Source: Escherichia coli (GTDB lineage Bacteria > Pseudomonadota > Gammaproteobacteria > Enterobacterales > Enterobacteriaceae). From it: DNA of 64,000 nt. Where the stretch lies: assembly GCF_045037415.1 (NCBI RefSeq), contig NZ_CP173438.1. One strand, written 5' to 3'. The notes under the pieces are model-generated. The model was not told the DNA's origin, did no database searches, and worked only from the letters and a program-made list of their open reading frames with translations. A program made the translations under genes and the position numbers. Shown one piece after another: positions 4,981 through 53,927 of the stretch (position 1 is the stretch's first letter; the number at the start of each line of letters is the position of its first letter).

Positions 4981-5056
4981 TGGCTCCTCTGACTGGACTC
5001 GAACCAGTGACATACGGATTAACAGTCCGCCGTTCTACCGACTGAACTACAGAGGA
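4981..5056 (-). tRNA. asnU: tRNA-Asn (GUU)
   Basis: Second reverse-complement copy of the 76-nt tRNA-Asn sequence. Confidence 0.9.
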
Positions 5057-6804: not shown

Positions 6805-6880
6805 TCCTCTGTAGTTCAGTCGGTAGAACGGCGGACTGTTAATCCGTATGTCACTGGTTCGAGTCCAGTCAGAGGAGCCA
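6805..6880 (+). tRNA. asnW: tRNA-Asn (GUU)
   Basis: Direct 76-nt tRNA-Asn sequence on the plus strand; in inverted orientation relative to asnU, flanking yeeO. Confidence 0.9.
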
Positions 6881-46697: not shown

Positions 46698-46773
46698 TGG
46701 CTCCTCTGACTGGACTCGAACCAGTGACATACGGATTAACAGTCCGCCGTTCTACCGACTGAACTACAGAGGA
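46698..46773 (-). tRNA. asnT: tRNA-Asn (GUU); HPI attachment tRNA
   Basis: Fourth copy of the 76-nt tRNA-Asn sequence, about 160 bp from the island integrase gene. Confidence 0.9.
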
Positions 46774-47764: not shown

Positions 47765-47855
47765 GGAGAGATGCCGGAGCGGCTGAACGGACCGGTTCTC
47801 GAAAACCGGAGTGGGGGCAACTCCACCGGGGGTTCAAATCCCCCTCTCTCCGCCA
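47765..47855 (+). tRNA. serU: tRNA-Ser, long variable arm (serU-like)
   Basis: About 91 nt, ggagagatgccggagcggctgaacgg...ggttcaaatccccctctctccgcca; acceptor stem pairs and ends in CCA; integrase immediately downstream. Confidence 0.85.
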
Positions 47856-51748: not shown

Positions 51749-51958
51749 TTACGGCGCTGTTTTTAATCCTGCCGGGATTTCGTTATTGTCCATGTGAATA
51801 ACTTTATCGACCGGATAACAGTTGCCGGGAATTTTCTGTTCCGCTGCGGCAGCCATGCATTCTTTCATTGAGTTGTACATGCCGGTGATTGCATCAAGCG
51901 ACTCACCAGTATTGAGATATACAGTCAGAATGAGTATGAATAATGTGTTCATCGCCAC
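51749..51958 (-). CDS. Small membrane protein, possibly ydfD-like
   Basis: 69-aa ORF with N-terminal hydrophobic helix, directly downstream of the dicB-like gene as ydfD is in Qin. Confidence 0.35.
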   Translation of the reverse strand: MAMNTLFILILTVYLNTGESLDAITGMYNSMKECMAAAAEQKIPGNCYPVDKVIHMDNNEIPAGLKTAP

Positions 51959-52137
51959 TCTCCGAAAATACCGAGTTTAAGAAGGGCAATTCTGGAGAGT
52001 ATGGAATTGTCATTCAGCAGGTAGGGTTCATATTTTCTCATATTGATTGCATCCTCGGTGAAATCCCTGTTACTGAGCAGAACACCAATATTAAAGCACC
52101 CGTCAGACGTATTAACGTTTGGTAGTGACGTTTCCAT
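51949..52137 (-). CDS. dicB: DicB-like cell-division inhibitor
   Basis: 62-aa ORF; METSLPNVNTSDGCFNIGV...FTEDAIN resembles recalled Qin DicB (62 aa); located downstream of the DicF homolog. Confidence 0.55.
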   Translation of the reverse strand: METSLPNVNTSDGCFNIGVLLSNRDFTEDAINMRKYEPYLLNDNSILSRIALLKLGIFGEWR

Positions 52138-52147
52138 TATCGCGTCC

Positions 52148-52705
52148 TCAACAATGAATTTTTAGCAATTGCTCCACAGTCATATTTTTAATTGCGCTCC
52201 GGTTTACAAGAGTCCATCCTTGTTTCTCCAGATAAAACCGGAAGGTATCCAGGGTGCAGACCATTGCGCCGTCAGGAACGGTTTCAGTGAATTTGATATT
52301 GCCGTGTTCGTCGAGACGGATAACCAGGGTGCGTCCGTCCCCGTGAATCATTTTGTCGGGAGACGGGGCGTTATTCTGGCGCAGTTCTTCCTCCATGCGA
52401 TCGAACTCAGCGATGTAGGCTTCTTTGAAAGTTGCGGCTTTTTTACCTGTGAACCCCATCACCAGGAAAACGAAGCCGTTTTTGGTGATTTGGTACATTG
52501 GGAGTTTGCGCCCGGTTGAGTCGGTGTATTCGCTCGACACAAAATTGTGCTCAGTGAATTTTGCTGAACAGTCCAGATTGCGAATTTTATCCAACACTCG
52601 TTCGTGGCGTTTGCCAAAGAACTCGGCGATCGCAACAGACGTAGTGACAGCGCGACCATTTTCGATGGTTACGTCAGGGTGAGAAAGGGTAAGGATAGTA
52701 GCCAT
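52148..52705 (-). CDS. rha: Rha-family phage regulatory protein
   Basis: MATILTLSHPDVTIENGRAVTTSVAIAEFFGKRHERVLDKIRNL...GFTGKKAATFKEAYIAEFDRMEEEL matches the Phage_pRha N-terminal domain; track ORF 52148-53002 has a probable non-coding N-terminal extension. Confidence 0.7.
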   Translation of the reverse strand: MATILTLSHPDVTIENGRAVTTSVAIAEFFGKRHERVLDKIRNLDCSAKFTEHNFVSSEYTDSTGRKLPMYQITKNGFVFLVMGFTGKKAATFKEAYIAEFDRMEEELRQNNAPSPDKMIHGDGRTLVIRLDEHGNIKFTETVPDGAMVCTLDTFRFYLEKQGWTLVNRSAIKNMTVEQLLKIHC

Positions 52706-53179
52706 GATGGCAGCCTCCGCGATGAATTTGATTAACTCACCACCGAGGTTTTCCACGACCATAAGGGTGGTGAGACGTACAGGGGTGGAAATACCGGTCA
52801 TCACGGAACCCGGCCAGCCTTGCGGCTGCCCTGCACGCCCCACCATAATGCGAATGTGGCTGTGCTTAACGCATAAAAAAACCGCCTGAGCGCGGTTATG
52901 CGCCGTGAATGATTTCGGGTTTCCACGCCCGGCACCCGTTTTATGAGGTGCAGGTGCACTATAATTCCACCCGTTCTGGTTTTCAATAGCTACATTCAAC
53001 ATTTTCTCTACCTTTCATCACCGAAGTGAACTTTGTTGATGCGGTGCCTGGTGCCTCCAGGTGACGTTAACCAGTTAACAATTAACGCCGGATACAGAGA
53101 ATCCACCCATAACACTGTTTTTGGTTTTAACTGTTCCGCGTGCGCTTAGCCGCATTCACCGCATCACAAAATTCACTTT

Positions 53180-53237
53180 AAAAAGGGCGGCAGAGCAGTC
53201 ACGGAGTAGAACTGATACCGCCAAAAGTCACCAGAAA
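53180..53237 (-). ncRNA. dicF: DicF-like small RNA
   Basis: Minus-strand sequence tttctggtgacttttggcggtatcagttctactccgtgactgctctgccgcccttttt differs at about 2 positions from the DicF sequence as recalled and ends in a terminator hairpin plus U-run; lies in a 540-bp region with no ORF. Confidence 0.7.
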
Positions 53238-53540
53238 ATTGATAACAGAGGGCGTTGCAGCGGGGTTGTCACTTAAGCGTATGGTCAACCTGACAACCCG
53301 GTGTCCTCAACGGGGGAAGGAATAACCCCGCCATACTTACCGCCGCGCCATTTCGCGGATTGCCACAACCGGAAGCGCACGGTCGACGAAAATTTAACGA
53401 CTACCTACAGAGAGACGAACTTCGCCGTGCGCTTTCGCGTTATGCCCTGACTTTTCAGGGATATATCCTTTTCAGTAAACTGTCAGTGCCGGATTCTTAT
53501 CCGTGTCCGGCGCACGCACTCTACCTCACCTGTGAATAAA

Positions 53541-53927
53541 TTAATGATTAATTGATATTTTGTTGTTTGATTCAACTTTCCCATCGGATGTGTGATGCTT
53601 TAAATCACAGGAATTAATACTGCTTGCTGTAAAATGATTTTCAAGGGGAGCTATTCGAATCCCTTTCTTTTTCATTAACAAGCCAAATCCTTTATTAATG
53701 ATGTCCATTAATTCCAGGAAGTATTTTTCATGTAAATCCTGGTTATCAGAGAGCTGCTTCTCTTCGCACAGACCGATAAAGGCACGACGAACGTTACCGG
53801 ATATAGTATCGATGGTTTCTTTTTCTACGGTACTCAGGTCAAGAGTCGCCAGTTGGGAACGAACTATATTCGCTGCCATTTCCTGGAATGGTACTGGTAA
53901 ATCTTTAAATTCCATCGTCAACCTCAT
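53541..53927 (-). CDS. Hypothetical protein in the ydfB/ydfC position of the dicB operon
   Basis: 128-aa ORF between ydfA and dicF; function unknown. Confidence 0.4.
   Translation of the reverse strand: MRLTMEFKDLPVPFQEMAANIVRSQLATLDLSTVEKETIDTISGNVRRAFIGLCEEKQLSDNQDLHEKYFLELMDIINKGFGLLMKKKGIRIAPLENHFTASSINSCDLKHHTSDGKVESNNKISINH

Follow-up and report, generated by a model that had tools for sequence, protein, structure and literature searches.

The 64,000-nucleotide stretch of the Escherichia coli contig NZ_CP173438.1 (assembly GCF_045037415.1) analysed here, referred to as the window, contains a lambdoid prophage in which an 874-bp cassette (52163-53036) separates the gene of the DicF small RNA (sRNA) from the division inhibitor gene dicB. 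The cassette carries a promoter, an IsrK-like sRNA gene, a C4-like antisense RNA gene and rha, and is probably an antisense-RNA switch of the P1-immI and Gifsy-1-isrK type for an antirepressor-like protein, inserted between the leader and the ribosome-binding site of dicB. All components of the cassette are of known kinds, and the arrangement is annotated piecemeal in RefSeq. The genes of the dicB operon and of the cassette are all on the minus strand, as are the promoters and RNA elements described with them. The promoter, the two RNA genes and the C4 target sites a2 and b2, located at 53002-52706 between the DicF-containing gap and the Rha domain, were missed by an earlier sequence-only reading of this DNA, which had described the Rha gene as cargo inserted into a conserved sRNA-toxin operon.

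The borders of the cassette were determined from alignments of the window with K-12, O157 and an empty site of the same allele (locus L019). The backbone is identical to those of K-12 Qin and the O157 prophage up to ...GCACCGCATCA and resumes from AAAATTCATTGTTGAGGACGCGATAATG (dicB), with ~870 bp present in the window only. The ends of the cassette form an imperfect direct repeat of ~10 nucleotides (nt), ACAAAGTTCA ... AAAAATTCA, of which the empty site keeps a single copy, CACAAAATTCA. An artificial "empty" junction, built from the two flanks in the window and used as a search query, is 99.0% identical over its full length to strain WP4-W18-ESBL-09, which encodes the same DicB protein (WP_000450218.1). 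The insertion is located 148 nt downstream of the DicF terminator, directly past the closing stem of the intact leader, and the last four codons of rha (KIHC) together with its TGA stop are derived from the dicB leader. Comparison with the Qin and O157 dicB operons thus confirms a conserved backbone to which the rha cassette is an addition, and the DicF leader does not run directly into dicB as it does in the Qin type. The idea of cargo holds for the ~870 bp absent from K-12 and O157 and for the existence of a same-allele empty site; it does not hold for a lone Rha gene, since a promoter, an IsrK-like sRNA and a C4-like RNA accompany rha. A transposon or insertion sequence was considered as the source of the cassette and rejected, because there is no transposase, there are no inverted repeats, and the only repeat is the imperfect direct one of ~10 nt.

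The cassette promoter (TTGAAA-17-TATAGT, 52958-52986) is PisrK-like and, with 10/12 matches, the best sigma-70 candidate in the region. It is 100% conserved in all five dicB- or kilR-linked copies that were aligned, and ends 7 nt before the first position of the IsrK-like sRNA (52875-52951). The sRNA matches Rfam family RF01394 over its full length with 67.7 bits (gathering score 50) and ends with a Rho-independent terminator identified by a terminator scan, a hairpin followed by U7 at 52897-52875. The C4-like antisense RNA (52763-52850) is a full-length match to RF01695 with 81.9 bits (gathering score 45), has a predicted fold of -47.3 kcal/mol, and overlaps the start of an orf45-like frame at 52846. 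Its antisense elements are b' (52808-52798), forming the loop of hairpin 2, and a' (52791-52785). The putative decoy sites in IsrK, assigned by covariation with C4, are a1 (52926-52920), which is the loop of IsrK hairpin 2 and pairs with a' in the 3' tail of C4, and b1 (52912-52903), a single-stranded stretch. The rha leader (52714-52756) contains the C4 target sites a2 (52756-52750) and b2 (52725-52715), the latter of which overlaps the rha Shine-Dalgarno (SD) sequence GGAGG (52718-52714) 10 nt before the rha ATG.

The pairing of these elements was evaluated in the regulatory regions of 12 homologous cassettes, aligned from the start of IsrK to the first rha codons. Between b' in the hairpin-2 loop of C4 and the 11-nt site b2 in the rha leader, 95.5% of the alignment cells are paired and 7 of the 11 pairs are compensatory, versus 31-48% paired in slid controls. 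The a1-a' and b1-b' pairings of IsrK with C4 are together 97.9% paired, with compensatory changes at 13 of 16 pairs, and the observed value was reached in none of 500 shuffles. Overall, 20 of 27 pairs are compensatory and link three separate segments. The a'-a2 pairing was scored through per-sequence duplex energies, as MAFFT misregistered a2 in the sequences with a 3-nt deletion. Cognate a'-a2 duplexes average -9.3 kcal/mol versus -5.5 for non-cognate ones, and cognate b'-b2 duplexes average -17.7 versus -8.2 kcal/mol, with -19.3 kcal/mol for the b'-b2 duplex of the window. Segment-level duplexes were used because RNAduplex of full-length C4 with the leader (z -3.0) or with IsrK (z -1.4) ignores intramolecular structure and is uninformative. 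The matrix of cognate and non-cognate energies separates discrete a and b specificity classes, the b class of the window being unique among the 12; the specificity alleles of the switch are discrete and, it appears, heteroimmune. Judged by the covariation in the 12 cassettes, a three-site RNA switch of one and the same kind underlies both P1 immI and the IsrK system of Gifsy-1.

The layout of the window cassette is nearly superimposable on that of the immI region of phages P1 and P7 (a1 b1 - c4 - a2 b2 - icd - ant, preceded by promoters in the NC_005856.1 annotation of P1). Both have a C4 RNA that matches its family over the full length, target sites duplicated on both sides of c4, and a b2 site just before the first translated gene. 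The spacings are nearly equal: ~15 nt between a1 and b1, 4-7 nt from the end of c4 to a2, ~30 nt between a2 and b2, and 10-11 nt from b2 to the AUG. The allelic a and b specificity classes of the cassettes resemble P1/P7 heteroimmunity. Furthermore, both systems combine a gene of the antirepressor type with one for an inhibitor of cell division. C4 of P1 represses the translation of icd and ant, and Icd blocks cell division (NC_005856.1 record notes). The division inhibitor precedes the antirepressor gene in P1, whereas dicB or kilR follows rha in cassettes of the window type, and the upstream a1/b1 segment of the window is a separate terminated sRNA, IsrK.

The regulatory DNA of the cassette aligns with the Salmonella Gifsy-1 isrK-orf45-anrP locus (PMC4825925) through IsrK, C4/orf45 and the SD sequence, with the AUG of the orf45-like frame at ~+106 and that of the effector at ~+247. 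The two loci share the IsrK family match with its promoter and terminator, and the C-terminal domain of Rha belongs to the AnrP family phrog_2379. They differ in location, the Gifsy-1 locus being downstream of antQ and the window cassette in the early-left operon before dicB. Gifsy-1 has a separate orf45 with a stop overlapping the anrP start (AUGA), whereas the window has no such stop; a fusion of orf45 to the effector is also found in S. dysenteriae (PMC4825925). Experiments on Gifsy-1 showed that IsrK read-through forms an inactive mRNA, and that IsrK supplied in trans raises anrP translation ~140-fold via orf45 (PMC4825925).

The rha gene (52148-52705) encodes a protein of 185 amino acids (aa) with an N-terminal Rha domain and an AnrP-like C-terminal domain. 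The sequence-only reading had correctly placed a Rha-family open reading frame (ORF) between DicF and dicB, from the ATG at 52705 to the stop at 52148, and the domain scores above curated cutoffs both in Pfam (Phage_pRha, PF09669, E-value 1e-30, 106.5 bits versus 29.9) and in TIGR02681 (108.5 bits versus 45.95). The C-terminal 85 aa match phrog_2379 with an E-value of 2.3e-8. BLASTP aligns Rha with AnrP at 23% identity over 75 aa (E-value 0.003), with only the C-terminal domain in common. Pfam detected no ANT domain in the window Rha, and a PDB sequence search with Rha returned nothing meaningful (best E-value 0.7). Relative to copies with a synonymous divergence (dS) of 0.5-1.1, the ratio of nonsynonymous to synonymous substitution rates (dN/dS) is 0.22-0.31 for the Rha domain and lower, 0.12-0.15, for the C-terminal one. 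Relative to the nearer copy L010, dN/dS of the Rha domain is 0.42 and the C-terminal domain is identical. Because dN/dS against diverged copies is low, rha is, on this measure, a functional gene under purifying selection.

By extension from the experiments on P1 and Gifsy-1, C4, acting in cis or in trans, would pair with a2 and b2 and block the translation of rha, and IsrK would compete for the C4 region and so turn rha translation on. An untranslated rha mRNA might, as in P1, be cut short by Rho, which would leave the downstream dicB silent. Biere, Citron and Schuster reportedly found in 1992 that translational repression by C4 in P1 leads to Rho-dependent termination downstream. When rha is translated, ribosomes would stop on the dicB SD sequence GAGGA (52149-52145), which overlaps the rha stop TGA (52150-52148) in the joint TGAGGA, 10 nt before the dicB ATG, and dicB would be co-expressed. 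The cassette brings three changes for dicB: a second terminator on operon transcripts, a near-consensus upstream promoter, and an SD sequence shared in part with the stop codon of an ORF under C4 control. An effect of the cassette on dicB expression is therefore plausible. Rha may be an antirepressor-like regulator, as its C-terminal domain is common with that of Gifsy-1 AnrP, and might act on the DicA-like repressor, which is of the Gifsy type. DicA is a non-cleavable repressor of the Gifsy type that is controlled by antirepressors, in Qin by Rem (PMC10448788). As a second antirepressor beside Rem, Rha could form a positive feedback loop.

Several points weigh against the interpretation of the cassette as such a switch. 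The promoter, the transcription start and the RNA processing in this strain are ones that we infer from sequence; Rho polarity and translational coupling onto dicB would follow by analogy, the Rho step by analogy with P1. The Rfam c4-a1b1 model overlaps IsrK weakly, with 25.7 bits and thus below its gathering score of 46.7. Compared to P1 immI, the window lacks icd, and rha directly follows b2 without any Icd homolog. Compared to Gifsy-1, the orf45-like frame (AUG 52846) is fused in-frame to rha with no stop between them. The N-terminal domains of the effectors differ, being Rha in the window, ORF6N in AnrP, and KilAC/ANT (PF03374) in P1 Ant (Ant1). The same rha allele occurs beside three types of repressors, namely DicA-like, a 154-aa helix-turn-helix protein, and a LexA-family protein, and therefore a simple cognate repressor-antirepressor pair is disfavoured. 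Finally, the prophage already has rem, a known antirepressor gene for DicA. The rem product is annotated as "protein Rem" at 61184-61435 (+) of the window by the NCBI Prokaryotic Genome Annotation Pipeline (PGAP), and was shown experimentally to be the antirepressor of DicA in Qin (PMC10448788). The prophage may hold two antirepressor-type genes, rem and rha.

The sequence-only reading took rha for a plain cargo gene in an sRNA-toxin operon, with its main effect on the processing of DicF from a ydfA-initiated read-through transcript. A Rha-domain ORF absent from most dicB operons is indeed present between DicF and dicB, but the cassette also brings two RNA genes, a terminator and a promoter of its own; DicF with the 290 nt upstream and ~150 nt downstream of it is essentially K-12-identical; the 5' processing sites are upstream of DicF (PMC10448788); and the insertion follows an intact leader, so that this explanation is improbable. 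The polarity of the event could also be reversed, with an ancestral cassette that most dicB and kilR operons lost by deletion between the ~10-nt direct repeats. This history is possible but doubtful. The repeat ACAAAGTTCA / AAAAATTCA that flanks the cassette and its single copy CACAAAATTCA in the empty site are compatible with deletion; the copies at the dicB or kilR leader site differ in up to 17% of nucleotides, with dS of ~1, indicating that the arrangement is old; and the cassette is found in both Qin-like and Rac-like backbones. However, only ~6-7% of dicB- or kilR-bearing genomes have the cassette, and the isrK-C4-antirepressor unit is also found at other phage positions (between cII and O, and downstream of Q), which indicates that it behaves as a mobile module. 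Moreover, the rha 3' end, fused to the dicB leader with its last codons and stop taken from the backbone, looks secondary.

PGAP annotates a 284-aa "Rha family" ORF that begins at the ATG at 53002 and reads through isrK and C4 into rha. Were this "Ash-Rha" protein the sole real product, the isrK and C4 matches would be by-products of a conserved coding sequence and there would be no regulatory RNAs. In each of the 12 homologs, the 237-246 nt that precede the rha ATG contain no stop in the rha frame, versus 0-6 stops in the other frames, and the length differences in this extension are multiples of three. Residues 14-109 of the long ORF match Pfam Phage_ASH with an E-value of 2.1e-16, and the long form is represented in families of both PGAP and PHROG. 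However, substitutions in the extension are spread evenly over the three codon positions (0.264/0.280/0.287), and in its 99 codons dS is depressed to 0.12-0.25 (versus 0.35-1.06 in the diverged parts of rha) with dN/dS of 0.4-0.9. Because of this signature, the extension is indicated to be under RNA-level rather than protein-level constraint. The 20 compensatory pairs across three segments, and the promoter and terminator located inside the "ORF", likewise oppose a purely coding explanation, as do the IsrK and processed orf45/C4 species detected experimentally in Gifsy-1 (PMC4825925), and we regard it as very unlikely. Only a small probability is also left for an inert remnant in a decaying prophage, without present function. 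The prophage integrase is frameshifted, and the rha-dicB junctions, 238 of 262 of which are at least 99% identical, could be so uniform because they spread recently, clonally or horizontally. Nevertheless, dN/dS of rha is low (0.12-0.31) when the compared copies have dS values of 0.5-1.1, the RNA pairings have been kept by compensatory change, and the promoter is unchanged across diverged copies. As a separate observation on the open frame, what Pfam Phage_ASH and the PGAP "ash family protein" describe seems to be translated DNA whose constraint lies in the RNA. Either selection acts on translation through the RNAs as such, or the Ash protein family is in part spurious.

The DicF sRNA gene, including its terminator U-tail, spans 53180-53236. 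Its covariance match to Rfam RF00039 (53236-53185, model positions 1-52 of 52) has 71.5 bits versus a gathering score of 48, with E-values of 8.9e-14 in the whole-window scan and 3.6e-15 in a local scan, and the U-tail extends to 53180. The near-exact DicF match noted in the sequence-only reading, placed at 53180-53237, is therefore borne out by a full-length covariance match above the gathering score and was accurately located. DicF of the window differs from that of K-12 by two substitutions, both at positions that are unpaired in the Rfam consensus, and its predicted fold has -15.3 kcal/mol versus -15.9 for K-12. The computed RNAduplex energy with the K-12 ftsZ translation start region (-60..+40) is -36.9 kcal/mol versus -38.5 for K-12 DicF. 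The gene is flanked on its own strand by those of DicA, DUF1391, DicB and DUF1482 proteins, which places it inside a dicB operon of the DicA type. Another cassette-bearing prophage (L010, 2254-2305) has a DicF copy that scores 61.1 bits, with a different 5' part and compensatory changes in the terminator stem, from GGCGG/CCGCC to GGUGG/CCACC. The kil-linked copy of E. coli A34 (NZ_CP028741.1; L009, 2239-2316) has a tRNA-like element in the DicF slot, ~170 nt upstream of the cassette; the element scores 46.6 bits with the Rfam tRNA model and is "tRNA-OTHER" in PGAP, and ARAGORN finds none there.

The 538-bp gap that contains DicF (53003-53540) has no ORF of at least 60 aa. It had been described as apparently empty and as the only long ORF-free stretch in the prophage; the hok/sok region at 60554-61183 is longer and also without an ORF of at least 60 aa, and the gap is the conserved non-coding DicF block of dicB operons generally. 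The equivalent K-12 Qin gap between ydfC and dicB is 567 bp long and ~97% identical, from ~290 nt upstream to ~150 nt downstream of DicF. The block upstream of DicF (53237-53535) is ~97% identical to both K-12 Qin and the O157 prophage, although the flanking genes differ, and has a fold z-score of only -1.9. By homology, it would be where RNase III and RNase E cut the DicF precursor. The 5' ends of DicF are made at RNase III and RNase E sites located upstream of the sRNA (PMC10448788). As DicF and its upstream processing sequence are unchanged and the insertion lies downstream of the terminator, the altered DicF processing suggested earlier is unlikely, and DicF processing is probably unaffected by the cassette.

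The leader between DicF and dicB (53032-53184) is structured, with a minimum free energy of -51.5 kcal/mol and a z-score of -3.44, and its segment 53032-53173 weakly resembles Rfam STnc100 (38 bits versus a gathering score of 47). The structured leader is conserved upstream of both dicB and kilR. The "DicB pseudogene, missing C-terminus" of PGAP (53115-53032) was considered as a duplicated 5' end of dicB, which would have pointed to an insertion into the gene itself, and rejected, as K-12 too has this leader ORF in the frame of dicB. The Rac kilR region likewise consists of a DicF-like hairpin and a structured leader, after which comes the gene of a small inhibitor that targets FtsZ; in K-12 Rac the cassette is missing, and the upstream gene, on the opposite strand, is sieB. 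The hairpin of Rac and Rac-like prophages (K-12 Rac, L011; L008, 2246-2300) scores 42.8 bits with the Rfam DicF model, below the threshold. Since the same hairpin and leader are found upstream of kilR, the DicF-leader-inhibitor architecture is common to Qin and Rac. Faubladier and Bouche are said to have noted dicF-like sequences in Rac in 1994.

The protein genes around the cassette are arranged in the order dicA, ydfA, orf, DicF, dicB, ydfD, and belong to a true division-inhibition operon of the dicBF type in a lambdoid prophage similar to Qin and Rac. The dicA-like gene (54287-54694) encodes a repressor of 135 aa that matches NCBIfam PRK09706 "transcriptional repressor DicA" over its full length with 241.6 bits (cutoff 101) and contains the Pfam HTH_3 domain. 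Upstream of ydfA, a consensus scan (9/12) points weakly to a candidate dicBp-like promoter (TTGACC-18-TAAATT, 54156-54185), which is placed like K-12 dicBp. The ydfA-like DUF1391 gene (53927-54133; Pfam DUF1391, 1.5e-28), for which PGAP has a shorter form of 153 nt, is followed by a gene for a hypothetical protein of 128 aa (53541-53927) that matches phrog_6937 (PHROG E-value 4.9e-76), has no Pfam or NCBIfam match, and occupies the position of K-12 ydfB/ydfC. The dicB-like gene that the sequence-only reading had noticed beyond the Rha gene is dicB (51949-52137, 62 aa), with matches to Pfam DicB (1.3e-32) and, above the cutoff, to NCBIfam NF049927 (103.4 bits versus 100), and its product is 64% identical to K-12 DicB. 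The last gene of the series is the ydfD-like DUF1482 gene (51749-51958; Pfam DUF1482, 3.5e-19). The operon is similar to that of Qin (K-12: dicA / ydfABC-dicF-dicB-ydfDE) in its DicA-type repressor, ydfA, DicF, dicB, ydfD, a downstream exonuclease, and the ~97% identical non-coding sequence around DicF. It differs from Qin in the 874-bp cassette between the leader and dicB, the different orf in place of ydfB/ydfC, and the diverged DicB. Moreover, K-12 shows no internal promoter (PMC10448788), whereas the window variant has a near-consensus one.

The prevalence of the arrangement was surveyed in 5426 complete E. coli genomes, with a match requiring at least 80% query coverage. The stretch from DicF through the cassette to the dicB start matched 387 genomes, and the cassette alone 393. 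The exact rha-dicB junction was found in 262 genomes, about 5% of the total, and the rha-kilR junction in 118. Thus, ~97% of the copies of the window rha allele are directly upstream of a division inhibitor gene. Relative to the genomes that match the dicB (3811) or kilR (1960) queries, the share with the cassette is ~6-7%; the 3811 genomes match the rha-dicB junction query, most of them through its dicB part only. The Rha gene is therefore not a standard member of most Qin-like prophages but a minority variant (262/3811). Rac-like prophages, some of them in O157:H7, carry the cassette at the same leader position, downstream of the DicF-like hairpin and upstream of kilR, and there rha has its own stop codon and a spacer of ~45 nt. 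Open-access literature searches found no description of an antirepressor, Rha or isrK located between dicF and dicB, and a 10-strain survey of dicBF contexts does not mention the rha cassette arrangement (PMC5069750).

Related isrK-C4 units with other antirepressor alleles are located between cII and O in Stx phages, ST64B and e14-like prophages, and the isrK-C4-antirepressor unit of Gifsy-1 is downstream of Q. In the cII-O contexts (L006, 4789-5013; L017, 2292-2516; L014, 2292-2525; L015, 2103-2336), the antirepressor gene is always followed by an ORF of 74-77 aa (phrog_1153) that overlaps its stop codon, a relative position equal to that of dicB or kilR in cassettes of the window type. The phrog_1153 ORF was considered as an Icd homolog and rejected, as it has no BLASTP alignment with P1 Icd and no Pfam match.

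The dicBF operon is a textbook cryptic-prophage toxin and sRNA locus, for which recent K-12 work concluded that there is one promoter only, under the control of DicA and of Rem as antirepressor. In the variant, 500 nt accommodate three regulatory RNAs (DicF, IsrK-like and C4-like), and the division inhibitor is preceded by a second promoter unit gated by RNA. A few hundred complete E. coli genomes carry it, and its kilR-linked form occurs in some O157:H7 strains. We tentatively suggest, as a possibility with clearly lower odds than the switch itself, that a C4 switch combined with a division inhibitor is a recurrent unit (P1 c4-icd-ant, c4-rha-dicB, c4-rha-kilR) that would provide ~7% of E. 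coli genomes with a second route to dicB or kilR expression, independent of DicA and RacR. This route would start at the cassette promoter and be gated by the IsrK/C4 pair through Rho polarity and stop-codon/SD coupling. If this is true, the time at which host division stops would depend on the "immunity type" of the sRNA. Ribosomes that start at the ATG at 53002 on operon transcripts might, in addition, unwind C4 and bypass the switch, giving separate lysogenic and induced modes of expression. If the cassette controls dicB or kilR, then filamentation, the inhibition of phage receptors by DicB, and prophage induction would be wired differently in its carriers.

The window is 100% identical, in reverse orientation, to the chromosome of E. 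coli Ecol_AZ146 (NZ_CP018991.1). The host element is a lambdoid prophage integrated next to a tRNA-Ser-like gene and mtfA, and contains a frameshifted integrase gene, an exonuclease gene, an immunity region, replication genes, hokD/sok, rem, and lysis and head genes. The tRNA adjoining the frameshifted integrase (47765-47855, +) is tRNA-Ser in PGAP and "tRNA-???" with an abnormal anticodon loop in ARAGORN, and is not listed by the Rfam gathering-threshold scan of the window; it may be an attachment-site tRNA altered through integration. Four identical tRNA-Asn(GUU) genes are located at 2572-2647, 4981-5056, 6805-6880 and 46698-46773, and further along the window from the last of them PGAP annotates, in the identical record, an integrase and the yersiniabactin island (ybtS, ybtX). 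The sok antitoxin RNA (Rfam, 106.7 bits) is at 60643-60814 (+), beside the annotated hokD and inside the ORF-free stretch 60554-61183.

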